Source: a virus
Strand: one strand, 5' to 3'
IMG/VR virus record: IMGVR_UViG_3300045988_154140
Location: 1 to 64,000 of that record
DNA length: 64,000 nt
In this document: in pieces, positions 2,424 through 41,389 of the stretch
How positions within the stretch are numbered: the stretch's first letter is position 1
How the letters are laid out: each line of letters starts with the position of its first letter
The notes under the pieces: model-generated
Database searches by the model: none
What the model was told of the DNA's origin: nothing
Seen by the model: the letters and a program-made list of their open reading frames with translations, nothing else
Program-made: the position numbers and the translations under genes

Positions 2424-5400
2424 CTACTTCTCCACCTCCAGCAGCCTGCGGTTAGCCTCCTGCAAGGAGTCCACCACGTTATCGGGTAGGTCATTGTCCT
2501 TGTACAGGCGTAGCATGTAGTCTATATATCGCGTTATGCCACGCATGTCTCTGTAGGCCTTGAAGCGCTCGGATCCTTGCAGCGCGTCCAGCTTCTGCCG
2601 CTGTGTCTTCTTCGCCTCCTCGAAGTTGGCTTTAGCCGCCTCCAACGACTTTTCTGCTTTTGCTATAGCGAAGAGGTCGTGTGACTTCTTAGCCGCCTCC
2701 AGCTTCTCCTCCTTTGCGCGCACGTCCAACGCTGCGGGTCGGGGTATGCGCTTTATAAGGCTGAACTCGCTTTCCGTTGCGCCCATGAACGGTTTGACCG
2801 TCCGCATGTACTCGCCCTTTGCGCGTGCCGCGTTACGTTCCCCGCTGCCGCTTATCCAGAAGCGGCTGAGCACGGGTACGCCTCCTCTGTCAAACAGACC
2901 CTTTGCGCCTTTCCAATAGTCCTTTTCCGAGCCGCCGCCCTCAAGGTAGGGAGCGGCCAGCGCGTCAGACACGGCAAGCGCTGTGCTTGCCCATCCGCCT
3001 GCTATGCCTGTCAGCATCTCCTGCACGTAGCCTGGGGAGAAGTCCAGCACGTTGTCGGCAGAGCGCTCGTCATTGCCGCCGCCTACCTTGTTCAGCGCGC
3101 GTGACATCGCGGTGATGGTCGCGCTTGTGCTACGGGTAGCCTTGAGGTATTCGGGCTGGTAGCGGCTGAACATGTTGTCGTTGCGCAGTCGGGAGCCCTT
3201 GAAGTCGCGGTTTACGGCTATGTGGGATGCCCACTGCAAGCTGCTTGGAACAAGGCTCGATATAGCCGTGCCAGCGTCTGTAAAGTCCACGTTATTGGGT
3301 GCTACAAGCTCCATCAGACCCGCGAAGTCGGAAGCCTGCATATCGCGTTTGCCCGCGAAGGACGCGCCCGTCACATCGCCTACCTGGAACATCGCGCCTA
3401 ACTCTGGTGTAAGTGGTATCTTCAGCCAGCCGTGACCCTTGGGCAGACGCAGGCAGATATTATGCTGGCGCTCCCAGTCGGACAACTCATAGTAGTAGTC
3501 TCCCCAGTCATCGTCCCCGTCACCGCCTACAGCGCTGTATATTGCGGGCAGGAGCAAGTTATTGAAGAGTGGCAGAGCCACAGCAGCTGCCGTGACAGGA
3601 GCCGCGCCGAACGCGAAAGCGAACTTTGCGGGGTGCTCTTTAACAAGCCTGTAGAGCTGGTATGTGCCTTGTACATGTGCGTTGAAGAACACGATGAACG
3701 AACGGCCATACTGGCTGTAGTAGTTCAGTGCGTTGGATAGCCTGTACTTCGTGCCCTCCCGCTGCGTCAGGCTCTTGGCACCCGCTCCCTTGCGGTTGAA
3801 GTTCAGCGTAGCCTCCTTTGCATCATCTATACTGCGCTCTCTTGTGCGTCCCATCTCGCGGCTTGTCTCGTAAGCCACGAAACGGTTAACAAGTTCTGCG
3901 GCCTCGTTGAGGAACGAGAAGAACTCGAACATGCGCATGGGACTGAGCTTCCTGCGATTGATATTCTTGAGGTCACGCACCATGTCCACCATGAACTGCG
4001 TGCTCTCCTTCTGGTTGCGTATCATGGTGTAGCCAGTAGCACCACCACCGTCCATGAACTCCTTGAACATGCGCTCATGATACCCCGTCATTGGCTTGCC
4101 AGCCTCGTACTTGCGCAGCATGCCCACCATCCTTGCCCAGTTGGCCACGTTGCCAAGCAGAAGGTTCTGCTTCTTGGTCAGCGCCCACCAGTATGCGGGG
4201 CTCTCGCCTATAAACGCACGTAAGTTCGAGTGCGCTGTATCTCGTGCAAGGTTAGCTCCACCGAAGGACACGTTGTAGTTTGTAAACGCGCCTGCCATGA
4301 AGTTATTGAGCTTCCGCAGTATAGGCCAGCCGCTGTTTTCTGGGTTCAGCAGGCCGTTGAGTGCCATTGCCACACGTGGGTTGCCCACTATGGTGATGAC
4401 GCGGTTAGTGCCTCCTACGGAGAGGCGTATCTGGTGTGCGCGTGCGTGCTGCTGTGTCACTCTGTAAGGCGGCAGGGGCGTTCCCTTCTTCATCTGTATG
4501 GCCATACCCAGAGCGGCCTTCTCGCGCATATCAGCGTTGAACCTGTCCAGCTCTGCCTGCACCTCCTCCGCGCTCATCTCTCGCCCGCCTGTCATTGGGT
4601 CGGTGAGTTCTGGAGTGGCCAGCACCCAGTCTGGCGCGTCTTCTGTGCCTCTGTTCTCTACCCACATACTGTCTATGACAGCCAGGCCGTTGGTGTTGTG
4701 GGCGCTCACAAGGTTGTAGAAGTGTTGCAGAGCCATGTTCTTGTTACCGCTCGCGATGCTTCGGTATGCCACGCTCAGCAGGCCACCCAGCGGGTTGTCA
4801 GCCTCGCTCTTTCTGCCCTTTGCTGTCTTGACGGGGTTGCCCAGCTCGCTGCGCTGTCCGTCAAGGTAGTCGTACATCTCTTCTGCGGTCGGGTCAGCCC
4901 AGCCGCGCAAGGGTACGAAGAAGTCGTAGCGCCTGAGTTGATCATCCACGTACTTCTTTGTCGTCAGTCCGCTGCTTCTCTGCTTCTCCAGGCTGTACCC
5001 GCTCATCGCGCGTATAGCCTCCCAGAGGTCATCAGTGTAGTGTGTGTTTTCGTAGTTCTCTACACGCCTGTAGGCGGCTTCCGTGAAGTCCTCTTTCTCC
5101 TCAACGAGTGCCGACAGACCGCTGTAGTCTTCTGTCACGTCTGCCCCGAAGTCAGCGGCTCTTCGTGTCAGCTCTTCCTGCGTCTCCCTCCAAGTCCAGC
5201 CGTTCTCCTCTGCATACTCCTTGATGAAGGAAGCGGTGCGGTACCAGTTGTCCAGCTCGTCCTCGTAGAACTCGGCTTCAGTCTTCAACCCGTGTTTGTT
5301 TGGATGCTTCTTGATGCTGTCTATCTCTGCCTCTATTTGCTTCACACGAGCCTTGATAGCGGCTTCAGTACCCAGCGTGCTTTCCTCGCCAGCCGCTATG

Positions 5401-8400
5401 CGCGTCAGTTCGGCAAGCAGTTGTGTGCGTTCCTCCTTCAGCTCTGCGGTGGCCTCGTGTATCTGTTCCGCATAAGACTCATTAGCCTTCTCCTTCATCG
5501 CGGCGCGTATGGCCATGTCTCTGTTACGCTCTATGCCGTGTTTGGAGATGAGATACCAGGACAACTCAAGACCCTTGCCTTTCTTGAAGTCTTTGACAGC
5601 GCCTATGAGCCTGTACACGGCACGCTGTAGCGGGCGTGCAAACGCACTGTCAAAAAGCTTCATCTCGTTTGCGTTGCGGCTGCTCAGTTGCAGCATCGCC
5701 TTGTATGCGTTCTGCATGTCGCTCACCTTCTCTCCTGTAGCGCGTTCAACGAGCTTCTGGAACTCGTCAACGCTGGCAAGGTAGTCGAAGTAGCCCTCTT
5801 TGGCAAGGAAGGATGCTTTACTCATCACATCGTCCCATGCGCGTTGCATGGTCTCGCGGCTCCATCCTGCGCCCTCGCTGTCATTGTTCAGCGCACGGCT
5901 TATGTCATCCTCACGGAAGAGGTCTTCAGCCGCAGCGGACTCCTTGCCCTCGGTTTCGTACTGTCCTACTCCAAGTGTCTCCTGCATCTTCAAGTCCTCA
6001 GCCGTACCAAGGATGCTGCGGAACGAGCCAGGCTCTTCAAGGTTCTTGTAGCTTCTCCACAGGATATAGCGCAGTTCATTGTCGGTGAGTACGGGTCCCG
6101 CGTAGTCGAAGCCAAGCGTGTGCAGCATATCCAAGAAAGCCTCCTTGATAGCCGTCCAGAAGGTCGGGTCGGTTGTCTCGTAGTTCATATCCTCTGCAAG
6201 GCTCGCAAGATACTCCTCTGTGGCGGTACGCTGGTCGTAGCCCTTCTCCTCCATGAGCGCGTCTATCTTCTGCCGTATCTTGTAGTCGCAGCTCTCGTAC
6301 ACGTTATCAAGGAACTGGTCGAAGTGCTCACCGAACAACTGACGCAAGCCGTGGTGGGCTACCGCCTCATGCAGTATTGTCTTCTCCACATCTGCCATGC
6401 TGGTGTGGTTGCCTATAACTACGGTTATCTTGCCAGTAGTCTTGTTGTAGAATCCTTTTGCCTTCTGTCTCTTGCCCGTGAAGCCCGAACCATCGGCCAC
6501 TATCTCCACGTTGCTGAGATGCAGCTTCTCTGCCAGCTCCTGCGCGTGTGTGGTCATACGTTCCCGCATGTTCTCCGCGTATTCTACCTGTTGTCCTGCG
6601 CTGTATCGGCTCTTGCCTATCATCTTCGATACGGGGTCATTGGCAAGCGATACCTCCTCGTCTGTTGCTTGTCCTTCGCCTTCACGCTTGAGCCATTCGC
6701 CCCTGTATTCGCTGTTCAGAGCCTCTATGGCCGCATCGTCCATGTAGGCAGCGCCCTTATAGGCTTGCTGCTTCTCCTCGTCATCCACAACGCGGTAAAG
6801 GTCATCCTCAGAAACTTTTTCGTCAGAAACCTTTGGGTTCTCGAAATCTTGTATTACCTTTGCCGCAGAAGAAAGTTCTGCGTTATCTGAGGCTTCCGCG
6901 ATTGGTGCGGAGAGGTGCAGATAATTCAGGGCTTTCTTTTTATCTACAAACCTCATATAACCCTTGTTAATCCAAGCGGCAACGCTGTGTCCTTTCTTTC
7001 CGAACACGCTGCTCACAATATCAAAGTCGGCCTCTGTTCCTTTCCCTAAGTCTATTGCAACGAGGAAATTTCCATTCGCGGTTTTCAATTCCGTTAGCAC
7101 GGAGCGATTACCTTCTTTCCCTAAGTTGTCAAATACTGCGATAGGATTTGCCACGGCCTTTGGCAAGTCATGCAGCTCTTCAATGGAGAAGCCATGTTTT
7201 TTCATCTTCTTCGCAACCTTACTGCCATGAAGTCTTATCGGTTTATCAGCGACTCCCGCCGACAATAATTTTGCGGAGGGGCTTCCCAAATTGAAATTTA
7301 TTTTGTCGGAATTATCCTCCGTAAATTTTGCGAGTTGTTCATTGAACTTCTCGTTCACCCTCTCCAGGCTTTCCCCGTCATTCATCATGCGGGGATCCAC
7401 GCCGTCCAACAAATCCTTCATCACGCGGTCTGCCACTTCCTCGGCTGTGGTGTAGTGGATATGCAGGAAGTCAGCAACGCTCTTCCAGAACGTATCAAGC
7501 GCCTGCCGTATCTTCTGCATCGCGCTCATTGCTTCTGCCTTGTCGAAGATGCTTCCGTTCTTGGTAGCCTCCTCCATCTCCTTACGCAAGCGTTCCGCGC
7601 CTCTACGGCCTGAGTAGGTAGCCAGCACTTCATCTGCTATCTCGTCATCAGTCTTCAGCTCGGGGTAATGTTTCTTCACTTCCTCCCATACAGCGGTGTC
7701 CTTCATAAGGCCAACCACGTTTGCCCACTCTTTAGCGTTTGACTGTCTCAGAGCGCTTGCCCACAGGTGCGCATACTCATGCACAGGTGTTTCGCTGTTG
7801 GCTATCTTCGGGTCTATGTATATCTTCCCGTCAACGGTAAAGCCGTAAGCCTCACCATCGGCGGTGCGGAAGAAGCGTACATGGTCAGTTATCTTAGCAT
7901 CCTTCTCGTTGAAGATGACGTAGTTCGTATCGCCCTCTTTCGCGCCACCAAAGTTTCGCCCAGCCTTGTACCTGATGCCGACAAAGCCGAGGGAATACAA
8001 AAATTCGCTTGCGGCCTTATCGTCATTGAATGTTGCGTCATCATTAGGCATCCTAATTGACAAAGCCCTATACAAGTCGTTGCCGTCCAAAAATTTATAC
8101 CTCTTGTCGAGTTCGGGGTTTATCGGTCTTTTGCCTTGTTGCTCTAATTGCCTATTTACTTTGTTCAGCACTCTAGCACCAACCCTGGAATCCCAGTCAA
8201 GATAGTTCTTCCCGTTGTCATCGGTGATTTCCACCGTGTAGAGATGTCGGGAGGGTAAATCGTTCTCTTTTAGTTCACCAAGTTTCTCGTAGTCGTGGAT
8301 AAAATCGTTATACCCGCTACCCTTTTCCTTGGCTTTATTGTACATCTCAGAATGGCTGTCAAGAAGTCTTTGTTTTTCCGACTCGAAACTTCTGCCATTA

Positions 8401-11400
8401 TTTAATGCCTCGCGCAGCTTCTGGAGATAATAGTTTCCGAATTTACTTCTGAAAAGCTTATTATTTGCGTCCTCGGCATACGTTCTACCGATAGCCTTGC
8501 TGCTTGTCACATAAGTGCCCCAGCCAAAGGACTGACTCCCCTGACCCTCACCAATGTGGCTGTGGTCGAAAGCCTCAAATTCAGCACCAGAACCGTGCCA
8601 AACACGATTTTCACGAATGCCCGCAGAACTTTTTTCGCTCTCTTCAAGCAATTTTTTGCCTTTATCGTAGGACTTTTCAACTCCTTTTAGTAACTTTGCA
8701 AGCGGATAGGATGAATCAAGTCTTAATTGGTTCTGGCTACCCACACCATTAGGAGTGCTTGGCAATTCGTTGTCGAGCACTTCTATTTTTTGTACCTCGT
8801 ATGAGTGGATGCCATTATCTGTCGCCGCAGATTTTTCCTCGCGCATCAGCGTCATCACCCTGCAAGGCACACCGTCAATCACAACAGCACCATAAAACCT
8901 GTGCATAAGGGCAATCGGATTTATCCTTGCCCCGCGTTTCCCGTCCTTTCCTTTGATATAGTCGGGATGCTCTTCCACCTCAACGCTATGGTTTATCACT
9001 TCGTCAAGATGTTCTGCCAAAGCCAGATGGGCTCCCTTATTTCCGCTCTTAGCTTGGTGCTTCGGGCTTAGACAAATCTCTATCGCGTTACCAGAGATTG
9101 TATAGTCAAACTCTGTGCCGTTATTGTCGTAATGAAGAACCTTGGCCTTTCCGTCAGGAGCGTATTTCTCCTTTGCTTTTTGGATAGCCTGCTTCGTGGC
9201 CTCAGCTATATTTCCTGTATAGCTATGCCTTGGGATGCCATCGAGCACCTTAACTGACATGTCGTTTAAGCCTGGCATTACAATCCCTCGGTTTTCGACA
9301 GCCTGTTTCTGTCTTTCTGCAAAACTCTCTGGAGCGTCACCCATTTGGGTTCTTACCTTGCCGTTAGCCTCGTCCATCACACGCTGCCCTTCTTCCTCGT
9401 TTGTTATGACATCCATGCCATTCTCCCGCATTCTGTCTATCACGGCATCGCGCAAGATAGCTTCCTCCTTCGTAACAGGAGCAGCATCTTTTCCGCGCTG
9501 GTAGCGCTCATCAGCCTTGCGAGAGTTGAAACGCTTTGATGGTGGGATAATATTGCCCTTGTCATCGCGTGTTACTAAGTCGTTCTGCTTTCTGTTGTTC
9601 TTCACATTCTTATACCTGTAGCTCTTGCCGTTGTCGTAGCCCCACTCGTTCACGTCGTTGCTGTCCCACCAAAGGTCACCAGCTGGCACCTCGTCTTCAA
9701 TGATACGGTACTTACCCTCCAGACGGTTGTCGCCATGCAACTCAGCATACCTCCTCGAAGGAGTCACCCAATCACCATTGCGCAACTTGCCCTCCTTTAC
9801 AGTTGTAGGCACGGCGCGATACACCTTTATCCTCACATCCTTCTTGCCGTTCCGTATGTCGTCAATGGCTGTCTGTATCGCCTTGCCGCTCTCCTTGCTT
9901 GTTGGCAAGCCTTGCGAGTATTTATCAGGATGCTTAAAGATGTCTTCTGGTTGGTTGCTGTAGCCTGCTGCCATATCCTCCACATTGAGGTCTGGCGAGT
10001 CTTCACCAACGGCATTGCGTCTCGCTTCGTCCGTCTCATAATCAGGCTTTGAAGGTGCGCCCCAAGCACCTACGCCCTGGTAGTCGCTCTCGACATCACC
10101 ATACCCCTTACGTCTTGCAGCCTCGTCAAGCATCTCACGGGCAGTAGCCTCGTCACCTTTCGCCAAGGCATCCGCATAGCGTTCGTCTATCTCGTCTTCT
10201 GTGAGTAAAGACAACTCTTCCAAGTGCTGCTGCCTTTTGGCTTCTTCCTCTTCGGCTTTCTTGCGTGCAGCCTCCATCATGCCACGCTCTATCTCCGCTT
10301 GCTTTCTGCGCTCCTCGATAAGCACGTCCACGTCGCCATACTTCGCCTTAATCGCTTGCTCTACAGGCTCAAACAGACGCTTGTTAGCAAGAAGACCGCT
10401 CACTCTATCACGCTCCATCAACGCCTTCTTCTCCGCTATATGCTCACGCAGATATATAGCCTTTAGGTCATGAAGAGCCATTGCAGCCGCAGCTGAATTC
10501 CTTTCTCTCATACCCTCGGCATATCGGGAAAGCCACATACCATCCAAGCCATACTCCGCTGCAAACTCTGAATATTCGTCTGCTTTCTGGAGACGAGCGT
10601 GTGGTTTTTGCCCTGCGGCTTCTTCGGTGCGGATTATCTCCTTAATGATAGCGGCTTCATTCGGTGCAAGTAGAATTTTGCCTTGTTCGTAGGCATTCCA
10701 AGCCCCTATATAGCCGCTATACATTTTTACCGCTAATTCTATCTGTCCCGTTTCGGCTTTGGTGCTTCCGTATCGTATCTTGCCTATCTTCCATTCGGTA
10801 GCGTGGCTATCAGCATGCTTACTCGCTCCCGTCTTATACTTCTCGGGTGCGGGTGTTGCCTCCCACTTCGTACCTTTGATGACCTCTTCCGTCTTTTGAG
10901 GGCGCGTGTCCTTTGCGGCTTTAGCGGCTTTCTTGTATGCGGCTTCCACCGCTTTATCGGCTTCCTCGTATTCGGCGTTCGCCTTCTCACGCAACTCCTT
11001 CAGTACGGGGTCGGCCTTCATTGCCTCACGCTCTTTCTGCCCTTTTTCGGATGTTGTCTCCGCAGACAAAGTGGCTTGCGTTGGGTAGTGCTCAAAGAGG
11101 TAGTCCTGTATCTTCTCCTCCCATTTCTGCTCCACGTCACGCGCATGGTCATTCGCTTTTATGAAGTCTGGATTGTTCTCTACGAGGTGGCTTTCTATCT
11201 CTTCTTTCTGCCCCTTTTCTATAGGCAGTATGGAAGAATTATTAAACACAACAACCTCACCTCCATCAATCATATTATGTTCTACAGACCAAGCATTCAT
11301 ATAGTTAATGATGCCATCATATCCCTTACTCTTTAACAAGTTAGAGAACTGAACGGCTTCACTCTCGTTAAAGCCTGGATTACCAAGCATGTAGAATGGT

Positions 11401-14400
11401 TTGGATAGCTTTACATGTGCTTCAAATACCTGTCCATTATAGCCGTATTCTTCTGCAACGTCCTTGTTTGGAGTAAAGTACACACCACTACCTGCGAAAT
11501 CCGCACTTTCACCATCGGCGCGTTTGTGTCCTGCTTCAAGTTCTGACACACTGATAGATTTATCTAATGTACCATGGTAAAGAGTAATTGGGTTACCTGC
11601 ATTATCGGCAACGACACCTTCATCTGTCAAGTTTCTATGTTCCTGACTAATAGGTGTACATCCTCTCTCTCTCAATAGAGTTTGAATTTCCGAAGTGGTA
11701 TCTTCATCGGCAGGTGCGTTGATTTCCACAACGTCCTTCTTCACTGACGAGTACTCACCAAAAGGCTTAGTCTTACGCGTGCTTGACTCAATCCACTTCT
11801 CGAAGTCTTCGAGGTTCACAGCGGACACATCAATTCTGCGGCCATTCTCCCAGCCCTGCTCGTAATTGGCAAGGTAGTCGCTCTTAGCCTCGTCAGCATC
11901 ATTGAAGCCAAGCATAACCTTGTGCTCGTCAAAACTACCGTCAGGGTTGTACTGGTCAACGACGAACACCTTGCGTCCGTCCCAACCGTCAATATCATTG
12001 GAGAGGAACACGTCAATGTGGTCGCCGTCAACACCCACTGTACCACGAATGTAGCCGTAAGTGTTGTTCATCTTGCTTTCCCACTGCTTGCCGTCAGCAT
12101 CAGTGCCCCTACGCACGCTGCCCTGCGGCTGCTCAATGGTGATGTCGAACGTACCAACTTGTACATGCCCCTTCTTATAGTTGCCAGCTTCCTTCTGCGC
12201 CTCTGTCGGTTCGGTATTCACTTCGGCTGAGGCCGCTTCAATCTGGTTACCAACACTTTTTTCGTCATTTCCTTGCTCAGTTGAAGCCTTCTCTTTACCT
12301 TTGCCCTCAGAAGAGGTCGTTGGAGTTTCAGCGTTAATCGTTTCCTCACCGCCTTGTTGGGGATTCTGAGGCTTTGAAACATCTTCTGCGGTAGAAGATT
12401 GTGTCGGTTCGCTCGGCTCGTAGTCTTCTTGATTAGAGTTATTGGTTTGTGGCGCATCCGTGCCCTCTGTAGCGAGGTCGGACTTATTCCCTTGCGAAGA
12501 GTACAAGCCATCTGCCACGTCCGAGGCAGTCGAAACGTCATCGGCGCGTTTCCAAACCAATTTACCATTAAGAAGGAGGTCCAATATCTTGGACTTCCTT
12601 TTTTCTTGATTTGAAATCACGACCTCACGACCATCCTTGCGAACTGTTACAGATGTAAAATAATAGTATCGTGAGCCATCAGCCTTGTGGAATGTTTTTA
12701 CAAATACATAAGAGCTGCCACGTTCGGTAATATCTCCTTCTTTAGCCTCGCTCTTATCTTCGACTATAAAGTCAGGATTTTCAAGCGTAGGTTTAAGCAT
12801 ACCGAGTTTGCCATTACGTCCTTGCCGCATTAGCTTTGCAAACTGGTTCTCGCCCATCTTGACATCGCCAACTGGAGTTGGGATCTGCGTACCCTCATCA
12901 AATAGGGCATCCCAATTCTCTATTGTCAACTCAATTTGGGGAGCGACTTCTGCTCGCTCCTCCATCTGAGCAATGAGCGTAATAGCCTCTTCTCTGTTCA
13001 GTGTGCCTTCGCCTGCAATTTCTTCTTGGCTGCTTCCACTTCCTGTCGCACTTTGCGCTCCTCCAGCATTCTCTTGTGCAGCCTCTGGTTTACCAGCGCC
13101 TTCATCGCCAGCATCTTCTTCTGCTCTGGTGTCTGCGCGCTCTTCACCTCCTCGGGTGTCATCAGTCCGTTCGCCAGGTTGTACTTGATGGCTTCCACCA
13201 TCGCTCTGCTCTTCTCCTGCGGAGTCATTTCCTTCTGTTCCATTGCTCTGCTGTTTAGCTTGTTCTTCTCTTCTGCGTAAGTCCTCCTCTATCTCGTCTG
13301 CGTATAGCTTGGTGAACTCTTGCTCGTCAAAGTTACTATATCTTCTCAACATCTCGGGCATCTCCTGCTCGGTATATGCGATATAGTCCTCATAAGACAT
13401 GCCGTAGCGCTCGTTATAGTACGCATCGCGCTGCGCGTTGTACTGCTCCACAAACTCCTGCTCTTGGTCAGTCTTATCTCGTCCCGACTTGAGGAAGTCT
13501 ATAATGGCATCCCTTGCGGCAGCACTGTCACCGCCGAAGAAGCGGCCACCGTTCTCAGTGTTGTCAAGGTCAACCAACTTTTCGGACAGGCGTTCTATGC
13601 TGTCTCCCTCCTTCGCGATACGTCCTGCCCACTGCTTCTGCTCCAGCGTTCCGCCTCCAGTCTCTTTTCTGAAGGACTCAGGTGCTATCTTGGCACTTGC
13701 CATGAAGTCGGCGATGAACTCCTGCTGTGTGGGTATGCCGTTCTCGGCCTTTCGCTGTGCTCGGTAGGCCGTGCGTGCGTTATCATCGTTCAGTTCGCCC
13801 TCCCAGCCTTGCGCGTCTGCGGGTGTGGTTATTCTCTCCACTTCGGCTTTTACATCGTTCCAGTACTGAGCCTTGTGGCGGGCATCTTCCAGCTCGTCTT
13901 CCCACTTCTTCTTGCTGGCAAGGTACTTGGCCTTGTCAGTGCCTACCTTGGGCTTCCGCTTCTCCAGCTTCTTCACGTTCTTGTCGGCTTCCGCTATCTG
14001 TGCCTCTATGAACTCGCCCACCTCCTTGTCGTCAAGGGTACCGTCATACAGGTCTTCCACGGTGGCCTGCACAGGAGCCTTGTCGTACTGGGGTGCTCCG
14101 TCCTTATCCAGCGGTATCTTTGGAGTGGCCTTGCTCTCCACAGCGGGAGCGGCCTCACCCTCCACAACAGGAGCGGCTTCACCCTCCACTACAGCGGAAG
14201 ACCCGCCAGTTGGCCCCTCCTCGTCTGGTGCGTCCTTGCTATCCACGTAGTCATGCAGGAGTTGTTTCGTCTTGGCATCCCACTCAGACTCATCCACGAG
14301 GTCTATCCACTCATGGATTGTCTCGGCATCGTTCTCGTCACGCACCCAGCCGTCAACCATTGCGCGTGCGCTTCTTCCTTCCTCGGTAGCGTCCAACTGC

Positions 14401-17400
14401 GCGGCCACCTCGCTACGGGTAGGCACTGCTGTATCGGCAGGCGCGTCCTCCTCTGTAGCGGGAGTGCCCTCTATGACCACAGAAGAACCGTCAGTCGGTG
14501 TCTCCTCTGTTGCACCGCCCTCCGTAGTCTCCTCCACCGCGCTGCGCTCTGCATCGCGCTGCGCTGCGTCTTCCTGCTCATACACGTAGTCCTGGGAAGA
14601 CAGAAGCTCGTCAGCGGTGGCCTTGAAGGGTGTGCCGCTTATGGCTTCCTCCTCGCCTGCCTCGTTCATGCGTGTGGGCAGGAGATAGAAGTTACCCTCC
14701 TCATCCTCCTTCACGATGAGGAAGCGCTGTGTCTCGTTATCCTCGTCATCGCTCTTGCGCATGCTGATGCTGACCGTCTCACCCACGGCGGGCTGCACGG
14801 TCTTGTTATGGTGGTTGAGGTTCCAGCGTACTTCATCCTTCGCCTGCTCCCACAGCTGCTTGCGTCTGGCTTCTGTCTCCTCGCTGGCGTTGACGGCTGT
14901 CAGTTCTCCCGCCTCCTCACGCGGTATCATGCGCAGAGCGCCTGTCCCCATATCACGCACCACCAGCGTATTGCCTTCGTCAGACAGAGAAGAGGGTACG
15001 ACATATTCGTTCTCTCCAAGGTTAGAGCCGCGCCATGCGTTGCCCTCCTCGTCCGACATGAGGTTTAGCGTGTTGCCGTACTTGTCGGCTTCCTCGTCCA
15101 CGCGGTCATGCGCCCCTGCCATGATACCGCTCAGTCGGACGCTGGACAGATACACATCCGTAGCCGCCTTCTTCTGCTCCCAGTTCAGTGTCTTCAGTAT
15201 CTCCTGGAACTGCGGCAAGTCCATATCCCGCACGGCCATCACGAAGTCCTTGCCCAGCATTTCGGTAGCGGTTGCCGCTGCATTGTCAAACTCTACAGCG
15301 GCATTGTGGCGCTCGTCAACGGCCATCTCATGCCCCGCGTCAAACGCGCTCTTATAGCCACGCTGCACACGGTTTGCACTTATCTCCCCAGACATATCGC
15401 TTGTGTTTACGCTCTGGTAGGCCACCAGCTTACCAGCGTAGTCCATCAGCGCGCGCGCCTGCTCGCTGTCCTTCAGCCCGCCATCCTTGAGGACGGACAT
15501 ATACACGTCGCATATATCCTTGATGCTCTCTGCCTCGCGCATGCGGGTCATAAGAGGTACAGCGGTCTCCTCGCCCAACGACTTGCGCAGGGCATCGGCA
15601 GAGGTGTTCAGCTGGCGCTTGACGGTGTAGGAGTTGTAGCGCTTCTGGCCTTGCTCGATAGCGGCCATGGGCATAATCATCGCGGCCACCGACAAGAATG
15701 TCTCCAAGTTTGTCTCGGCGTTGAACATGGAGCCTTTCCAGTCGTTCACGGCTTTGTTGTAGTCCTCCTCGCTCTTGTAGTCCTCGCGCTTTGGCTCGAA
15801 GACACCTCCCGTCAGGTTCATGTCGCCTGTGAAAACCGCGTTCTCCAGGTTGTTTATCACTTCCTCTGCATACTCCCCGAAGAGGCCGCTTATGTGCGCT
15901 TTCTTGCGGAACTCGGCCAGCAGGGAAGCCTTCTGCTTCGGTGAGGATGCAATGAACCGCTCCACCATGCTGCGTGCCAAGGGCATATCCTTTGCGGCAA
16001 GGTTGGCAAAGTTCTTTATCGGGGAGAAGTATTCACCCACCAGCTCGGACTGGTTCTCGAAGTAGGAAGCCAAGCCCCCCTTGAGGTACGACTTAGCCCC
16101 TGTCTCTCTGTCCTCCACGCGGTCATACACTATGCGCCCGCTGTCATCCACACGGCCTATGAACGTACCCGTCTGCCTCTCGTTTATAGAGGCCATGGTA
16201 CGCGGCAGGCCAGTGGTGAGTGTTGTACCCAGTGCCTCCACTCCATCACCTATCACGCGCCCTGCGGTGTTCATCGCGCGCACGCCCCACTTGCCATATT
16301 TGTTCACGGCGGCTACGGTGAGGGCGCGCTGCATGCTCTGCTCGGCGGCGGTCATGGTAGGCGCGCCAGTCACGTTCTTCATCACCGTCTTACCCGCTGT
16401 CTTCATCGCGCCCTTCAGCACTTCCTTCACGCCTCCCTTGGCAGCGTTAGCCGCTACTTGCTTCTCCACAGCCGCACCCAGTCCGTTGAGCGGGTTGATG
16501 TAGATGCTAGCGGCAAAGCCCGCAGAGGCAGGCACGCTCTGTCCTACGCGGTAGGACATCGGCACGTGCTCACTGAAGTTAGCGTCCAGCGTGCTTGATA
16601 CCGCCATCGCGTCCAGCACTCTCTGCTCGGTTGCGGTCAGATGCTCCTCGGGTGTCTTGCCTGCCTCCTCGGCCTTGCGGATTCGCTCTGACTTATCTAC
16701 AAGCTCAGCCAGGTTACGGCTGTCTGCCCAGTCGTTGGCACCGAAGTCCCACGTGCGTATATCGCGGGTAGCGTCCCACGCGCCACGTGCCACGTTGAAG
16801 GCTGTGTTGTTGGAAAAGCCTTCGCGTGTAGCCTGCTTGATGGTGTTTTCTGTGTCCTCCAGTGCCTGCTCTGCGGCCTTGGCCTTGCCATACTCGGGGT
16901 CTGTCCACCTACGTATGTAAGAGGTCACGTTGGGGAACTGGCTCTCAGCGAACTCCATAAAGCCCGACTTCTCGCCTCGTCTCTCCTCTATGTCCTTCAA
17001 CGCGTTGGCCACCTCCTCCTTTGCAGCCTCGAGTTGTTCTCTGCCGCCTCCCAGCTCGTACTCGGCCTTCACATCGCGCCCGCGGTACTTCTTTTCTGCT
17101 GCGTCCCGCTGCTGCTGTAGGCGGTCTATGGCCTGCATGATATAGCCTTTGCGTGTCTCACTCGTCTGGTCGGTACCCTTAATGCGGTCATACTGCTCCC
17201 GCATGACGGTCAGCTGCTTGTCTATGCCTGCCAACTCCTCCTGCCGCTTGCGGTCTATCTCCTCTTGCGCGCGAGCCAGCTTACGCGCTTGCTCCTGCTG
17301 ATTGTCCAGAGCGGCCTGCTCACGCTCGGCAGAAGCCTGCGAGGTGTACTCGTTGCCGCTCTGTGTTATGTAGGTTCGCTCCTGCTTGCCTGTCTTGGCA

Positions 17401-17852
17401 TTGAACGTAGGAGCGGTGGCCACGGTACGACCCGACTTGCCAAGTCCAAGCTCTACCTTCGGCACGTTAAGCCCGAAGTTGGCCTTCTGCCACTCCTGCG
17501 CGTTCTCTGCCTGGTGCAGCACATCGCGCCCGCGTGCTACCGCCAGAGCGTTGTTCTTAGCCGCTCTTGCGTAGTCATCCGCGTTGGGCTGTGCCGCTCC
17601 ACCCTGCTCTTCGGCTGGATCCTCCTGCTTGGCTGGCTTCACGGCATGCAAGCCAAGGTTGGCAGCAAACTCCTCGTAGGTATTGCTCTCTACGGCGTTG
17701 TCCTGCTTCAGCGCAGTAAAGAGCGCGAGCCTGTTCTTGTAGCCTTCCTCACCAGGCGCAAGCATCTTAGCTCGGAAATTCTCTCTACCGCTTGTTACCG
17801 CGCCATCACGTTCCAGCGCATCGTATAGTATATCTAACTTATCTTGTGCCAT
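2424..17852 (-). CDS. Giant polyvalent multidomain protein (5142 aa), probable virion-packaged/ejected effector array
   Basis: Uninterrupted 15,429-nt ORF containing a DGDHIDV motif, two H-Y-E ART-like modules, two HExxH motifs, acidic/Pro-rich linkers and a hydrophobic C-terminal third. Architecture matches phage/ICE polyvalent proteins. Confidence 0.9.
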   Translation of the reverse strand: MAQDKLDILYDALERDGAVTSGRENFRAKMLAPGEEGYKNRLALFTALKQDNAVESNTYEEFAANLGLHAVKPAKQEDPAEEQGGAAQPNADDYARAAKNNALAVARGRDVLHQAENAQEWQKANFGLNVPKVELGLGKSGRTVATAPTFNAKTGKQERTYITQSGNEYTSQASAEREQAALDNQQEQARKLARAQEEIDRKRQEELAGIDKQLTVMREQYDRIKGTDQTSETRKGYIMQAIDRLQQQRDAAEKKYRGRDVKAEYELGGGREQLEAAKEEVANALKDIEERRGEKSGFMEFAESQFPNVTSYIRRWTDPEYGKAKAAEQALEDTENTIKQATREGFSNNTAFNVARGAWDATRDIRTWDFGANDWADSRNLAELVDKSERIRKAEEAGKTPEEHLTATEQRVLDAMAVSSTLDANFSEHVPMSYRVGQSVPASAGFAASIYINPLNGLGAAVEKQVAANAAKGGVKEVLKGAMKTAGKTVMKNVTGAPTMTAAEQSMQRALTVAAVNKYGKWGVRAMNTAGRVIGDGVEALGTTLTTGLPRTMASINERQTGTFIGRVDDSGRIVYDRVEDRETGAKSYLKGGLASYFENQSELVGEYFSPIKNFANLAAKDMPLARSMVERFIASSPKQKASLLAEFRKKAHISGLFGEYAEEVINNLENAVFTGDMNLTGGVFEPKREDYKSEEDYNKAVNDWKGSMFNAETNLETFLSVAAMIMPMAAIEQGQKRYNSYTVKRQLNTSADALRKSLGEETAVPLMTRMREAESIKDICDVYMSVLKDGGLKDSEQARALMDYAGKLVAYQSVNTSDMSGEISANRVQRGYKSAFDAGHEMAVDERHNAAVEFDNAAATATEMLGKDFVMAVRDMDLPQFQEILKTLNWEQKKAATDVYLSSVRLSGIMAGAHDRVDEEADKYGNTLNLMSDEEGNAWRGSNLGENEYVVPSSLSDEGNTLVVRDMGTGALRMIPREEAGELTAVNASEETEARRKQLWEQAKDEVRWNLNHHNKTVQPAVGETVSISMRKSDDEDNETQRFLIVKEDEEGNFYLLPTRMNEAGEEEAISGTPFKATADELLSSQDYVYEQEDAAQRDAERSAVEETTEGGATEETPTDGSSVVIEGTPATEEDAPADTAVPTRSEVAAQLDATEEGRSARAMVDGWVRDENDAETIHEWIDLVDESEWDAKTKQLLHDYVDSKDAPDEEGPTGGSSAVVEGEAAPVVEGEAAPAVESKATPKIPLDKDGAPQYDKAPVQATVEDLYDGTLDDKEVGEFIEAQIAEADKNVKKLEKRKPKVGTDKAKYLASKKKWEDELEDARHKAQYWNDVKAEVERITTPADAQGWEGELNDDNARTAYRAQRKAENGIPTQQEFIADFMASAKIAPESFRKETGGGTLEQKQWAGRIAKEGDSIERLSEKLVDLDNTENGGRFFGGDSAAARDAIIDFLKSGRDKTDQEQEFVEQYNAQRDAYYNERYGMSYEDYIAYTEQEMPEMLRRYSNFDEQEFTKLYADEIEEDLRRREEQAKQQSNGTEGNDSAGEEQSDGGSHQVQPGERTDDTRGGEERADTRAEEDAGDEGAGKPEAAQENAGGAQSATGSGSSQEEIAGEGTLNREEAITLIAQMEERAEVAPQIELTIENWDALFDEGTQIPTPVGDVKMGENQFAKLMRQGRNGKLGMLKPTLENPDFIVEDKSEAKEGDITERGSSYVFVKTFHKADGSRYYYFTSVTVRKDGREVVISNQEKRKSKILDLLLNGKLVWKRADDVSTASDVADGLYSSQGNKSDLATEGTDAPQTNNSNQEDYEPSEPTQSSTAEDVSKPQNPQQGGEETINAETPTTSSEGKGKEKASTEQGNDEKSVGNQIEAASAEVNTEPTEAQKEAGNYKKGHVQVGTFDITIEQPQGSVRRGTDADGKQWESKMNNTYGYIRGTVGVDGDHIDVFLSNDIDGWDGRKVFVVDQYNPDGSFDEHKVMLGFNDADEAKSDYLANYEQGWENGRRIDVSAVNLEDFEKWIESSTRKTKPFGEYSSVKKDVVEINAPADEDTTSEIQTLLRERGCTPISQEHRNLTDEGVVADNAGNPITLYHGTLDKSISVSELEAGHKRADGESADFAGSGVYFTPNKDVAEEYGYNGQVFEAHVKLSKPFYMLGNPGFNESEAVQFSNLLKSKGYDGIINYMNAWSVEHNMIDGGEVVVFNNSSILPIEKGQKEEIESHLVENNPDFIKANDHARDVEQKWEEKIQDYLFEHYPTQATLSAETTSEKGQKEREAMKADPVLKELREKANAEYEEADKAVEAAYKKAAKAAKDTRPQKTEEVIKGTKWEATPAPEKYKTGASKHADSHATEWKIGKIRYGSTKAETGQIELAVKMYSGYIGAWNAYEQGKILLAPNEAAIIKEIIRTEEAAGQKPHARLQKADEYSEFAAEYGLDGMWLSRYAEGMRERNSAAAAMALHDLKAIYLREHIAEKKALMERDRVSGLLANKRLFEPVEQAIKAKYGDVDVLIEERRKQAEIERGMMEAARKKAEEEEAKRQQHLEELSLLTEDEIDERYADALAKGDEATAREMLDEAARRKGYGDVESDYQGVGAWGAPSKPDYETDEARRNAVGEDSPDLNVEDMAAGYSNQPEDIFKHPDKYSQGLPTSKESGKAIQTAIDDIRNGKKDVRIKVYRAVPTTVKEGKLRNGDWVTPSRRYAELHGDNRLEGKYRIIEDEVPAGDLWWDSNDVNEWGYDNGKSYRYKNVKNNRKQNDLVTRDDKGNIIPPSKRFNSRKADERYQRGKDAAPVTKEEAILRDAVIDRMRENGMDVITNEEEGQRVMDEANGKVRTQMGDAPESFAERQKQAVENRGIVMPGLNDMSVKVLDGIPRHSYTGNIAEATKQAIQKAKEKYAPDGKAKVLHYDNNGTEFDYTISGNAIEICLSPKHQAKSGNKGAHLALAEHLDEVINHSVEVEEHPDYIKGKDGKRGARINPIALMHRFYGAVVIDGVPCRVMTLMREEKSAATDNGIHSYEVQKIEVLDNELPSTPNGVGSQNQLRLDSSYPLAKLLKGVEKSYDKGKKLLEESEKSSAGIRENRVWHGSGAEFEAFDHSHIGEGQGSQSFGWGTYVTSSKAIGRTYAEDANNKLFRSKFGNYYLQKLREALNNGRSFESEKQRLLDSHSEMYNKAKEKGSGYNDFIHDYEKLGELKENDLPSRHLYTVEITDDNGKNYLDWDSRVGARVLNKVNRQLEQQGKRPINPELDKRYKFLDGNDLYRALSIRMPNDDATFNDDKAASEFLYSLGFVGIRYKAGRNFGGAKEGDTNYVIFNEKDAKITDHVRFFRTADGEAYGFTVDGKIYIDPKIANSETPVHEYAHLWASALRQSNAKEWANVVGLMKDTAVWEEVKKHYPELKTDDEIADEVLATYSGRRGAERLRKEMEEATKNGSIFDKAEAMSAMQKIRQALDTFWKSVADFLHIHYTTAEEVADRVMKDLLDGVDPRMMNDGESLERVNEKFNEQLAKFTEDNSDKINFNLGSPSAKLLSAGVADKPIRLHGSKVAKKMKKHGFSIEELHDLPKAVANPIAVFDNLGKEGNRSVLTELKTANGNFLVAIDLGKGTEADFDIVSSVFGKKGHSVAAWINKGYMRFVDKKKALNYLHLSAPIAEASDNAELSSAAKVIQDFENPKVSDEKVSEDDLYRVVDDEEKQQAYKGAAYMDDAAIEALNSEYRGEWLKREGEGQATDEEVSLANDPVSKMIGKSRYSAGQQVEYAENMRERMTTHAQELAEKLHLSNVEIVADGSGFTGKRQKAKGFYNKTTGKITVVIGNHTSMADVEKTILHEAVAHHGLRQLFGEHFDQFLDNVYESCDYKIRQKIDALMEEKGYDQRTATEEYLASLAEDMNYETTDPTFWTAIKEAFLDMLHTLGFDYAGPVLTDNELRYILWRSYKNLEEPGSFRSILGTAEDLKMQETLGVGQYETEGKESAAAEDLFREDDISRALNNDSEGAGWSRETMQRAWDDVMSKASFLAKEGYFDYLASVDEFQKLVERATGEKVSDMQNAYKAMLQLSSRNANEMKLFDSAFARPLQRAVYRLIGAVKDFKKGKGLELSWYLISKHGIERNRDMAIRAAMKEKANESYAEQIHEATAELKEERTQLLAELTRIAAGEESTLGTEAAIKARVKQIEAEIDSIKKHPNKHGLKTEAEFYEDELDNWYRTASFIKEYAEENGWTWRETQEELTRRAADFGADVTEDYSGLSALVEEKEDFTEAAYRRVENYENTHYTDDLWEAIRAMSGYSLEKQRSSGLTTKKYVDDQLRRYDFFVPLRGWADPTAEEMYDYLDGQRSELGNPVKTAKGRKSEADNPLGGLLSVAYRSIASGNKNMALQHFYNLVSAHNTNGLAVIDSMWVENRGTEDAPDWVLATPELTDPMTGGREMSAEEVQAELDRFNADMREKAALGMAIQMKKGTPLPPYRVTQQHARAHQIRLSVGGTNRVITIVGNPRVAMALNGLLNPENSGWPILRKLNNFMAGAFTNYNVSFGGANLARDTAHSNLRAFIGESPAYWWALTKKQNLLLGNVANWARMVGMLRKYEAGKPMTGYHERMFKEFMDGGGATGYTMIRNQKESTQFMVDMVRDLKNINRRKLSPMRMFEFFSFLNEAAELVNRFVAYETSREMGRTRERSIDDAKEATLNFNRKGAGAKSLTQREGTKYRLSNALNYYSQYGRSFIVFFNAHVQGTYQLYRLVKEHPAKFAFAFGAAPVTAAAVALPLFNNLLLPAIYSAVGGDGDDDWGDYYYELSDWERQHNICLRLPKGHGWLKIPLTPELGAMFQVGDVTGASFAGKRDMQASDFAGLMELVAPNNVDFTDAGTAISSLVPSSLQWASHIAVNRDFKGSRLRNDNMFSRYQPEYLKATRSTSATITAMSRALNKVGGGNDERSADNVLDFSPGYVQEMLTGIAGGWASTALAVSDALAAPYLEGGGSEKDYWKGAKGLFDRGGVPVLSRFWISGSGERNAARAKGEYMRTVKPFMGATESEFSLIKRIPRPAALDVRAKEEKLEAAKKSHDLFAIAKAEKSLEAAKANFEEAKKTQRQKLDALQGSERFKAYRDMRGITRYIDYMLRLYKDNDLPDNVVDSLQEANRRLLEVEK
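6354..6371 (-). other. Zincin HExxH motif 2 (HEAVAH, aa 3828-3833)
   Basis: EKTILHEAVAHHGLRQLFG read directly from the reverse complement. Confidence 0.55.
7767..7781 (-). other. Zincin HExxH motif 1 (HEYAH, aa 3358-3362)
   Basis: ETPVHEYAHLWASAL read directly from the reverse complement. Confidence 0.55.
7905..8603 (-). other. ADP-ribosyltransferase-like module 2 (paralogous to module 1, large insert)
   Basis: VWHGSG (aa 3084-3089), FGWGTYVTS, GFVGIRYKAG, NYVIFNE (E3316). Confidence 0.5.
11238..11600 (-). other. ADP-ribosyltransferase-like module 1 (H-Y-E type)
   Basis: LYHGT (aa 2091-2095), GSGVYFTP, GYDGIINY, GGEVVVFNN (E2199). Confidence 0.55.
12009..12029 (-). other. Inorganic-pyrophosphatase-like DGDxxDV motif (aa 1942-1948 of giant protein)
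   Basis: VGVDGDHIDVFL is close to the family-I PPase signature D-x-D-x-x-D-x; surrounding NYKKGHVQVGTF...YGYIRGT. Confidence 0.4.
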
Positions 17853-17854
17853 AT

Positions 17855-19003
17855 TTATAAACCAAGTGCTCTTGTATGTGACATATTATTGTTCGGCTTC
17901 TTCCCTGTCTTGGCCTTCTTCTTGGCCTCTTCTGCGGCTTTGCGTTCCTCCTTCTTCTTCCGCGTAAGTTCTGCAAGCTTCTGCTCTCCCGATTTACCGC
18001 GCTCTATCTTGGTAGTGCTCTTGCCGCCGAACTCGTTAACGTGTTCGGTCTCTCTTGTGCGGCTATCGTCCCCCATCTCAAGCCCCATTTGGTGTATCGC
18101 CTCATTCGGGGTGATATACAATCTCTCTAATTCGCCAGTAAGGGAATTGGCGACGTCGTAAGGAACCCTGTATGCCCCACTACCACCGCTGCCAACGTGT
18201 CTTGCGCGTTGGTTATTCAGCCCTATCTGCGAGTCCATGAGCTGAAGCTTCTTCTGAGCAAGCGCCACGATGTTATCTGCTTCCTGCTCCAGCTTCTTTC
18301 TTGTGGCTTCGTCCTTTGCGGAAGCGGCCTGCATCGTCTTAATCTTGGCATCGGTAAGCATGTCTTGTATCTCCCAACGCTTATCCTCGGCGTTTACCTT
18401 ACGCACCAAGTCCGCTCTCTTCAGACCAAGCTCCTCTCCCTTCTGCTGGAGCGCACGGCCTTGCAGCAGGTTGTTAAGGTAAGCCTGCCTGCTCTTCTCC
18501 ACCTGTGTGCGGAATGCCTGCACGTCCTTGTTAGCGTCTGGCAGGTCGGGTAGCTTCTGGCTTGGAGCCACACCGCCTGTAAAGGCAAGGTTGCTGAACG
18601 CGCTGAGCACGTTGCCCAGCGCGCCCACGCTCTGAGCGGCAGCAGCCCCGCGCTCTCTGCGCTTCTGCTCCTCCTCGGTCATCGGTGCAGAGGTGTACTG
18701 CTTGACCAACTCGGAGAAGTTGTCGTAGTCACTGACTGGCGGTATATCCAGGGATGGCTTTTCCTCCTCCACAACGGGCGCTTCCGCTCTCTGCTCTTTC
18801 GGTGTCCACGGGGTCTGCGGTGTATAGTCTGCCGTTTTTCTCTGCAAGGCAGCTGGCACCTCATCCTTCACGGCAGGAGCATGGGCGGTCACAGCAGGGG
18901 CAGGAGTCGGGGTAGTAGCTACCGCTGGCTTAGGTGGGTAAGTCACACTCTTCTTCTCGTCATCGTCGAGAAAAGAATACATGTCTGATTCTGTTCTCTT
19001 CAT
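17855..19003 (-). CDS. hypothetical protein, co-operonic with giant protein (possible internal virion protein)
   Basis: 382-aa ORF with Pro/Ala-rich N-terminus and K/E coiled-coil C-terminus; its stop is 2 nt before the giant gene ATG. Confidence 0.65.
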   Translation of the reverse strand: MKRTESDMYSFLDDDEKKSVTYPPKPAVATTPTPAPAVTAHAPAVKDEVPAALQRKTADYTPQTPWTPKEQRAEAPVVEEEKPSLDIPPVSDYDNFSELVKQYTSAPMTEEEQKRRERGAAAAQSVGALGNVLSAFSNLAFTGGVAPSQKLPDLPDANKDVQAFRTQVEKSRQAYLNNLLQGRALQQKGEELGLKRADLVRKVNAEDKRWEIQDMLTDAKIKTMQAASAKDEATRKKLEQEADNIVALAQKKLQLMDSQIGLNNQRARHVGSGGSGAYRVPYDVANSLTGELERLYITPNEAIHQMGLEMGDDSRTRETEHVNEFGGKSTTKIERGKSGEQKLAELTRKKKEERKAAEEAKKKAKTGKKPNNNMSHTRALGL

Positions 19004-20987: not shown

Positions 20988-21199
20988 CTCTCCGTCAACT
21001 TAGCGTTGAAGAGGATGCTGCGTGAGGCTTCCATCAGCTCGTCACGCTTGCGGAAGTAGTCTCGCGCGTTAGCGCGTACCTCTTCCTTACTCGCTCCCGA
21101 GCGTATGCTGCCAGTGTAGCACAGATGAGCGTCTATCATATCCATTGCCATCTTGGCAAGCTCCTCCCTACTCTTCAGATTGTTCTCCTGATACTCCAT
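20984..21199 (-). CDS. hypothetical protein
   Basis: 71-aa ORF with 4-nt overlap onto the SNF2 start. Confidence 0.5.
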   Translation of the reverse strand: MEYQENNLKSREELAKMAMDMIDAHLCYTGSIRSGASKEEVRANARDYFRKRDELMEASRSILFNAKLTER

Positions 21200-22040: not shown

Positions 22041-22043
22041 ATT

Positions 22044-41296: not shown

Positions 41297-41389
41297 ATAG
41301 CAATAAATCCATGCGCTATTGCACGAAAATTGGGGTAAACCGTGCTCAAAACCGTGCATAAATACATGCTCATTTTCTTATACCTTGAT

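Follow-up and report, generated by a model that had tools for sequence, protein, structure and literature searches.

Polyvalent proteins are large polypeptides, often of more than 2000 amino acids (aa), that link several biochemically unrelated domains, and they are encoded by portal-terminase phages and prophages or by conjugative elements and delivered together with the DNA (Iyer et al. 2017). P1 DarB and DdrB and T4 Alt are head-packaged enzymes that are injected with the DNA and act before phage gene expression. Gp47 of phage phi24B, which carries LPD38 and MuF-C domains, is abundant in virions and invisible in the cryo-electron microscopy map, leading its authors to suggest that it is an ejection protein carried inside the capsid (bioRxiv 10.64898/2026.04.10.717836). 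Mass spectrometry placed JC1 gp69 in virions together with the products of the two genes immediately before it (PMC9144972), and knock-down of PTXU04 gp25 strongly reduced plating. Here we describe a giant gene in 64,000 nucleotides (nt) of viral DNA, positions 1 to 64,000 of IMG/VR record IMGVR_UViG_3300045988_154140, a stretch we refer to as the window. Its domain families mark the 5142-aa product as a phage polyvalent protein as Iyer et al. (2017) define the term, and it has grown by domain accretion. It has three parts, with constant N-terminal and C-terminal modules (N-module and C-module) on either side of cassettes that are exchanged at fixed anchors among near-identical phages. We propose that this tripartite protein is probably packaged in the virion and ejected to deliver anti-host enzymes.

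The gene begins with an ATG on the minus strand (window 2424..17852, stop included) and takes up 22.5% of its source genome (24.1% of the window); the genome is a 68,554-bp IMG/VR record with direct terminal repeats that is rated 100% complete. A phage origin is evident from this complete record, which also holds a portal gene (phrog_156), a weak SU10-like capsid match and replication genes. The initial annotation had described a single uninterrupted open reading frame (ORF) filling a quarter of the window. The ORF list and the translation bear this out, as do more than 100 distinct orthologues (90% clusters) of 3542-5353 aa, recovered with the frame intact from many independent assemblies in a search of 5.8 billion proteins; the exact 5142-aa protein is present on two contigs. 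Because more than 100 independent assemblies keep intact orthologues, a quirk of a single assembly cannot account for the frame. Six polyvalent-protein families score above their Pfam cut-offs and two fall just below, in keeping with the earlier likening of the protein to the polyvalent concept.

To define the parts of the protein we compared it by BLASTP with 106 close orthologues, hereafter the relatives; allele counts are based on 107 proteins. Both end modules are 95-99% identical across the 106 relatives, and the segments between them differ widely in the share of relatives that match at 90% identity or more:

aa 1-1590 (13083..17852, minus strand): N-module, constant in the lineage by BLASTP and ending in an acidic low-complexity linker; at least 90% identical in 98% of the relatives
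aa 1591-3720 (6693..13082, minus strand): variable array of putative effector cassettes, with fixed breakpoints and conserved anchor islands
aa 1591-1873: PBECR2 slot; at least 90% identical in 24%
aa 2032-2216: segment of the first ADP-ribosyltransferase (ART) copy, ART1; at least 90% identical in 8%
aa 2830-3060: LPD3 segment; at least 90% identical in 23%
aa 3061-3308: segment of the second ART copy, ART2; at least 90% identical in 2%
aa 3309-3498: HEYAH island; at least 90% identical in 99%
aa 3499-3690: MuF_C segment, a slot with 8 allele clusters; at least 90% identical in 16%
aa 3721-5142 (2427..6692, minus strand): C-module, constant, 97-99% identical in more than 100 clusters; over the comparison segment aa 3691-5142, at least 90% identical in 100%

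The InPase domain is present in 66% of the relatives. Six related loci are 95-97% identical to the window at the nucleotide level in the flanks and constant parts, and homology is lost at the same coordinates in all six (13058, 12233/11761, 9364-9369, 7929, 7339-7360 and 6741-6782). Three slots between conserved islands hold 34, 14 and 8 allele clusters, which occur in 78 combinations in the 107 proteins. Other cassettes in the relatives' slots include PBECR1, PBECR3 and LPD13, and inserts within ART2 are themselves swapped between alleles, extending the mosaic to the sub-domain level.

All of these data are metagenome assemblies, and the anchors (470-570 nt and longer) exceed short reads, making strain-switching chimeras possible. 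The long frame or the mosaic could then be a product of mis-assembly of co-occurring phage strains, the true genes being shorter. We consider this very improbable, given one open frame in each of more than 100 independent assemblies from different studies, the exact protein on two contigs, and a single 3633-aa orthologous coding sequence in the cultured phage BF1-TP2. Furthermore, 24 variants found on at least two contigs still give 22 combinations, and because of this assembly chimeras cannot explain the pattern.

Base composition follows the same boundaries. AT-richer stretches had been pointed out at about 6.9-9.6 kb and 11.2-11.8 kb, and by windowed GC they are real and coincide exactly with the swapped cassettes: the flanks have a GC of 0.56-0.61, and it falls to 0.45 at 6801-7400, 0.45-0.47 at 8001-9000 and 0.417 at 11201-11800. 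The mosaic arises because the cassettes are low in GC at third codon positions (GC3): the variable ones lie at 0.35-0.51, with ART1 at 0.35, compared with 0.64-0.67 for the conserved islands and 0.69-0.70 for the N- and C-modules. Identity to proteins of distant lineages reaches 65% for PBECR2, 55-73% for InPase, 65% for HEYAH and 52% for MuF_C, while the C-module of the same proteins is 35-38% identical. Low GC3, together with cassettes that are closer to distant lineages than the backbone is, points to import from a shared pool by recombination at conserved anchors. The suggestion of domain accretion made in the initial annotation is thereby confirmed, and it is sharpened by the cassette exchange among relatives and the low cassette GC3.

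One of the junctions carries a short recurring motif:

aa 2812-2828 (9369..9419, minus strand): junction motif GMDVITNEEEGQRVMDE; the flanking N-terminal-side homology blocks start at nt 9364/9369 in 6 of 6 loci

Among the 391 collected proteins, 163 have a single copy of the GMDVITNEEEGQRVMDE motif, in general form G[ML][DE]V[IV]..EGQRV[LM]D, and four large ones (P0243-P0246) have two copies that are identical or nearly so. Possible roles are as an anchor for recombination, as a small adaptor or as a site of processing. No relative's allele, and no part of the giant protein, matches elsewhere in the window; with no silent cassettes there, exchange must run between genomes. The window thus lacks the store of silent cassettes beside the main gene that marks a polymorphic-toxin-like system. 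We speculate that this gut phage lineage, which is uncultured, maintains its injected effectors as a natural combinatorial library: the backbone genome and the N- and C-modules stay fixed, and at least three slots would be refilled by recombination with foreign, lower-GC cassettes, sub-domain ART inserts included. The lineage would hold a phage counterpart of polymorphic toxins without silent cassettes, with the anchors (the GMDVITNEEEGQRVMDE motif and the HEYAH island) serving as recombination sites and perhaps as processing sites. We hold this tentatively, at a little short of an even chance. If it is true, the near-isogenic variants would be a ready-made map pairing each effector with the host defence it defeats.

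A Pfam scan of four overlapping segments of the protein supports most of the domain modules listed in the initial annotation. The motif coordinates given there were exact (DGDHIDV at aa 1942, LYHGT at 2091, GVYFT at 2123, VWHGS at 3084, GTYVT at 3112 and HEYAH at 3358), the sole exception being the motif at aa 3828. From the N-terminus, the features are:

aa 639-680 (15813..15938, minus strand): LPD14, PF18827; 39.1 bits against a cut-off of 27
14122..14194 (minus strand): tandem repeat of 24 nt x 3, (V)VEGEAAP units in the acidic linker; Tandem Repeats Finder score 90
aa 1659-1768 (12549..12878, minus strand): PBECR2, PF18810, BECR-fold RNase-like cassette; 48.7 bits against 27.1
aa 1884-2022 (11787..12203, minus strand): InPase, PF18823, type I pyrophosphatase-like OB fold; E 5.6e-54, cut-off 26.8 bits
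aa 2083-2205 (11238..11606, minus strand): ART-PolyVal copy 1, PF18760; Pfam match aa 2083-2155, 40.9-49.7 bits against 31.2
aa 2614-2743 (9624..10013, minus strand): phrog_2579, 'ParB C-terminal domain', inside the semi-constant block aa 2431-2829; PHROG E 1.6e-21
aa 2892-3007 (8832..9179, minus strand): LPD3-like cassette, PF18798, marginal; 26.1 bits against 27
aa 3080-3316 (7905..8615, minus strand): ART-PolyVal copy 2, divergent, with large inserts; 26.8-28.2 bits against 31.2, E 4e-6
aa 3317-3498 (7359..7904, minus strand): HEYAH module, candidate zincin-like metallopeptidase in a constant island; conserved motif and predicted strands
aa 3547-3641 (6930..7214, minus strand): MuF_C cassette, PF18819, in all relatives with several alleles; 63.6 bits against 27.6
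aa 3828-3833 (6354..6371, minus strand): HEAVAH (HExxxH) motif, in a helix after a predicted three-stranded sheet
aa 4745-4775 (3528..3620, minus strand): strongly hydrophobic segment; Kyte-Doolittle 19-residue mean 1.82
aa 4786-4966 (2955..3497, minus strand): LPD38, PF18857; 76.7-80.8 bits against 27

The InPase domain matches its profile from end to end (positions 1-135 of 135) and retains the acidic metal-binding motif DGDHIDV (DGDxxDV). It aligns with the C-terminal extension of portal gp19 (PDB 9b41, E 5e-26), and this fusion to a portal fits a virion location for InPase. PDB sequence searches with all four quarters of the protein gave nothing beyond the portal-fused InPase, and an NCBIfam scan of the family-less regions and of the two upstream genes, A and B, returned noise only. 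The ParB-like stretch at aa 2614-2743 had no match in the Pfam scan. The acidic linker with short tandem repeats that had been described is real, with GEAAPVVE/GEAAPAVE at aa 1224/1232. The N-terminal stretch is rich in charge, the fraction of E, K, R and Q being 0.46 at aa 201-300. We rejected a 'DarB-like antirestriction' label (phrog_10089): a P1 DarB-type protein is defined by N6-adenine methylase and SNF2/DExH helicase domains, the match is confined to the InPase region, and neither Pfam nor PHROG found a methylase or helicase family in the 5142 aa.

Two paralogous ART modules of H-Y-E type had been proposed, and only part of this stands. Copy 1 scores above the Pfam cut-off and copy 2 just below it. 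The two show no pairwise similarity (BLASTP E 2.3), and the polyvalent ART family is described as H-Y-D, of the Tox-ART-HYD2 clade (Iyer et al. 2017), with the His on strand 1, the Tyr on strand 2 and the Asp on strand 5. As far as sequence comparison goes, the copies are two divergent members of one superfamily and not recent paralogues. The residues of copy 1 are H2093, Y2125 and D2196/E2199. In copy 2, H3086 and Y3114 are invariant in the copy and 16 diverse homologues; an invariant N3310 lies opposite E2199 of copy 1 in our by-eye reading and is followed by conserved E3316 and D3318. Matches to the ART hidden Markov model (HMM) end before strand 5 in both copies. The ART-PolyVal cut-off of 31.2 bits is not exceeded by homologues of copy 2 either (18.6-31.0 bits), and DUF3990 is weakly matched by copy 2 in Pfam as well.

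ART2 and the HEYAH module form a conserved two-domain dyad (aa 3061-3498, 7359-8672). A HMMER search of 1.84 billion representatives found it in 7,866 proteins at E<=1e-3; many matches run unbroken across both domains, and the proteins are up to 7,387 aa long. The dyad profile found nothing in the PDB, and the HEYAH half had no covering Pfam model in ten homologues scanned. The initial annotation had assigned zincin motifs of the form HExxH to two sites. HEYAH at aa 3358 is indeed an HExxH, the sole one in the protein, and the motif at aa 3828 is HEAVAH, an HExxxH. The zincin fold itself found no support in Pfam, NCBIfam, PDB or Foldseek searches.

Both motifs are nonetheless conserved. H3358, E3359, H3362 and E3408 are invariant in 17 diverse homologues, and H3828, E3829 and H3833 are kept in 30 of the 32 aligned C-module homologues together with an invariant Glu at aa 3880. 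The metallopeptidase (MPTase) core consists of a helix, a three-stranded sheet, the HExxH helix and a Glu-bearing helix, and an HExxxH variant is mentioned (Iyer et al. 2017). In AlphaFold2 models both motifs lie in a predicted helix after three short strands, the HEYAH-region model being of low confidence (predicted local distance difference test score, pLDDT, 48.7). This predicted strand-strand-strand-helix order is the core layout that Iyer et al. give for MPTases. Zincin folds at HEYAH and HEAVAH are therefore plausible but unconfirmed, the signs being the motif, a downstream Glu and predicted secondary structure. When we aligned the HEYAH and HEAVAH module profiles with hhalign, the probability was 0.5%, indicating that the two are unrelated.

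The variable middle could also be read without enzymes, as inactive spacers or length filler in a mainly structural or mechanical ejection protein that forms a trans-envelope conduit, as proposed for phi24B gp47. In favor of this reading, the N- and C-modules are strongly conserved, while lengths of 3542 to 5353 aa among the relatives show that more than 1500 aa can be missing from the middle; ART2 has an atypical residue at the position read as catalytic, and no zincin is verified. Filler, however, would not be expected to retain an InPase that matches its family end to end with a metal-binding DGDxxDV, an H and Y invariant across diverse homologues of both ARTs, or an ART2-HEYAH dyad kept in thousands of representative proteins. 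We regard this reading as decidedly unlikely.

The two constant modules differ in their distribution. The N-module is restricted to the lineage, being about 35% identical in one clade (P0108-P0113). Only 7 homologues, all shorter, were found in the 5.8 billion proteins and one weak match in 50,697 phage records; there was no PHROG match, and LPD14 was the only Pfam match. The C-module lies at or near the C-terminus in all homologues compared. It is covered by phrog_14770 over aa 3714-4963 (E 3e-223), is 29-51% identical in Bacteroides and other phages, and has homologues in Bacteroides temperate phages, GP4-like Ralstonia phages, Stx phages (by tblastn) and many metagenomic proteins, two of which are assigned to Bacteroides ovatus by their source records. 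Close C-module relatives were absent from GTDB species genomes and numbered only 2 in IMG/VR. AlphaFold2, given 34 sequences, modelled it with a pLDDT of 70.9 as largely helices plus two small sheets. The model gave 69 fold matches in BFVD at E<=1e-3 (best 2.2e-36), including E. coli phage PTXU04 (E 1.6e-16) and Ralstonia phage Alix, and some of the matching proteins also carry lytic transglycosylase, RelA/SpoT or methylase domains. Against the PDB, Foldseek returned nothing significant (best E 0.04, template-modelling score <0.1). The LPD38 HMM match, together with homology and fold matches across about 1300 aa, identifies this as an LPD38-type C-terminal module. A C-terminal region with hydrophobic helices had been described, and the region is indeed mostly helical. 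Strongly hydrophobic segments are not a feature of it beyond aa 4745-4775, the only such segment in the protein, which lies inside long predicted helices (model positions 1009-1060) and is a candidate membrane-inserting element.

From relatives and the literature we infer that the protein is packaged, ejected and cleaved by proteolysis, and the same holds for all of the enzymatic activities. In our model, the giant protein would be made together with the two small proteins encoded upstream (A and B) and packaged inside the capsid, and at infection would be ejected through portal and tail along with the DNA. The C-module would serve ejection and envelope crossing, in a membrane or conduit role. 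During the first minutes of infection the cassettes would be at work in the host cytoplasm, where cleavage of host RNA, ADP-ribosylation of host targets and removal of pyrophosphate or nucleotide signals would blunt host defence. Cleavage of the polyprotein into working units may fall to the HExxH and HExxxH modules. The earlier reading of the protein as cargo or an ejection protein is thus supported as probable, relatives that share the C-module or LPD38 having been found in virions (phi24B gp47 and JC1 gp69).

Several points weigh against this model. Packaging is argued by analogy with those two virion proteins. The giant gene is co-oriented with, and directly downstream of, replication and helicase genes and not head genes. 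Gene B has no match in the 50,697 phage records, and genes A and B are likened to JC1 gp67 and gp68 by their position. Among the proposed enzymes, neither zincin fold is backed by the Pfam, NCBIfam, PDB or Foldseek searches; ART copy 2 stays under its 31.2-bit cut-off with an Asn, by eye, where copy 1 is acidic; and the model of ART2 with HEYAH, built on a 9-sequence alignment, is poor. Individual cassette combinations, finally, could be metagenome-assembly chimeras joined at conserved anchors.

The genes around the giant gene bear on when it is expressed. Genes A and B precede it without gaps, in positions that are also kept in BF1-TP2:

17855..19003 (minus strand): gene B, 382 aa, with a Pro/Ala-rich N-terminus and a charged helical C-terminus; 2 nt separate its stop from the ATG of the giant gene
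19006..19554 (minus strand): gene A, 182 aa from the ATG at 19554, with a Gly-rich hydrophobic N-terminus, Q/A-rich
19583..19590 (minus strand): TATCTTTG, a match to the Bacteroidetes -7 box (TAnnTTTG), read directly, about 30 nt upstream of the gene A ATG

The relatives have gene B at the same position (370-391 aa), and it has no family match. The relatives also have a 182-aa orthologue of gene A at the same place; the listed TTG start at 19617 is probably wrong, since the ATG at 19554 fits their 182 aa. TATCTTTG is a candidate promoter of the three-gene unit. A palindrome, TTTGA-N7-TCAAA, has one match in the window, away from the giant gene. Upstream of the unit (19626-24223) are an SNF2-type helicase gene (19626-20987), a PAPS-reductase-like gene and a methyltransferase remnant, and in some relatives methylase and PAPS reductase are fused (731 aa; L009 1416-3611).

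The giant gene comes last in a long co-oriented run of genes (exonuclease, DNA polymerase, primase-helicase, PAPS reductase, SNF2 helicase), far from the portal and capsid genes. This arrangement favors the main rival to our model, in which the product is an early-expressed anti-defence polyprotein that is not packaged and works in the cytoplasm, made along with replication, helicase and methylase genes. We judge this unlikely, though less so than the other alternatives. Two unrelated phages have proteins with the C-module or LPD38 in their virions, and both InPase and LPD38 have been described as linked to the virion. In addition, a promoter-like TAnnTTTG box stands between the helicase gene and the three-gene unit, and a 15-kb gene would be a slow route to an early-acting factor. 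The packaged ejection protein remains our preferred reading.

Some variation lies just outside the giant gene. An identical 4699-aa protein (P0081) is found in two assemblies from different sample records (L009 and L010) whose upstream genes differ (207/391 versus 182/384 aa), showing that recombination also acts there. Directly downstream, relatives carry a helix-turn-helix gene (151 aa) and an LPD29-domain gene (543 aa; L007 25181-27366, L009 21972-24158). The window lacks both genes, and its positions 1-2423 are only 76-82% identical to relatives; this stretch is a second variable locus adjoining the giant gene. Several orthologues lie on contigs of 120-296 kb, compared with 68.5 kb for the phage, which may be integrated prophages or concatemer assemblies. 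A 426-aa ORF at window 41342-42622 (plus strand) has a sub-threshold Phage_integrase match (20.4 bits, E 1.5e-5), and an exact-sequence look-up of this ORF found no record. This weak tyrosine-recombinase match suggests a temperate lifestyle like that of BF1-TP2. The host is probably a member of the Bacteroidales, going by the cultured relatives and the promoter box.

How does the locus compare with known systems? JC1 gp69 (4515 aa), which with Bcep22 gp75 represents the Bcep22-like Burkholderia podophages, is likewise one giant gene, taking up 22.1% of a ~61-kb genome (PMC9144972). The order of PAPS reductase, two small genes and giant gene mirrors JC1 gp65, gp67, gp68 and gp69, and GP4-like Ralstonia phages, called similar and syntenic to JC1 (PMC9144972), have C-module homologues at 21-22% identity. 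JC1 gp69 and Bcep22 gp75 are annotated as 'DarB-like antirestriction protein', and JC1 gp69 matched the HepA (helicase) superfamily in a conserved-domain search, whereas we detected no helicase or methylase in the protein described here. The Bcep22-like phages also differ in having Proteobacteria hosts and very distant sequences, and JC1 gp69 itself is likened by description.

Phi24B gp47 (2811 aa; LPD5, LPD1, LPD38, MuF-C) has LPD38 and MuF-C in common with our protein, and Stx-phage proteins match the C-module at about 25% identity over 46% of a 1025-residue query. It differs in being about half the size, with other N-terminal modules and no ART or InPase reported. The closest cultured relatives are the Bacteroides temperate phages BF1-TP2 (gp68, 3633 aa), BKO1-TP3 and BS-TP4, whose C-modules are 30-38% identical over 70-82% of the query, with the C-terminal part of BF1-TP2 gp68 at 38%. 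The BF1-TP2 genome is also 68 kb in size and likewise has two small genes followed by the giant gene, and its record carries a Tyr-recombinase gene and a repressor gene. In these phages the N-module is almost unrelated, with only aa 1244-1506 matching at 28% identity, and the proteins are labelled 'hypothetical' or 'DarB-like'. Among the classical injected proteins, T4 Alt is an ART of the R-S-E clade, not H-Y-D, and P1 DdrB carries an MPTase and is processed. P1 DarB is a methylase-helicase, neither domain of which is present here, and DarB, DdrB and Alt are separate proteins and not one polyprotein.

Size and doubled domains had been singled out as notable, and the precedents do not support this. 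Proteins of 4515-4602 aa are known in Bcep22-like phages, JC1 gp69 occupies a comparable genome share, a plasmid encodes one of 12,242 aa, the ART2-HEYAH dyad search returned proteins of 5,000-7,387 aa, and single proteins with 12 ARTs or up to five MPTases exist. Size, genome share, doubled domains and orthologue mosaicism are all already known in polyvalent proteins, and no new principle is added here. What is gained is a clean three-part anatomy with a C-module common to phi24B, PTXU04, GP4-like and Bacteroides phages, for which there is no solved structure. Few phage genes are as poorly understood as those for giant polyvalent proteins, and experiments have revealed almost nothing about the roles of the enzyme modules or the way 300-600 kDa fits in and leaves a capsid. 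The more than 100 natural variants, which differ mainly in their cassettes, could link cassettes to host-range or defence phenotypes in Bacteroidales, and the series, whose shortest member is 3542 aa, could reveal a minimal ejection-competent core. The nearest parallel to the mosaic is in orthologues of Helicobacter prophage jhp1044, in which PBECR, ParB, RelA-SpoT and LPD3 are duplicated and rearranged in up to 50 combinations, read as rapid conflict-driven mosaicism (Iyer et al. 2017). Unlike in jhp1044, variation here falls between two long constant modules, with sharp shared breakpoints, flanks that are 95-97% identical and cassettes of other base composition. We found no published description of such a pattern, and this sharply bounded, compositionally foreign cassette array, held between two constant modules in more than 100 near-identical phages, is the new part.

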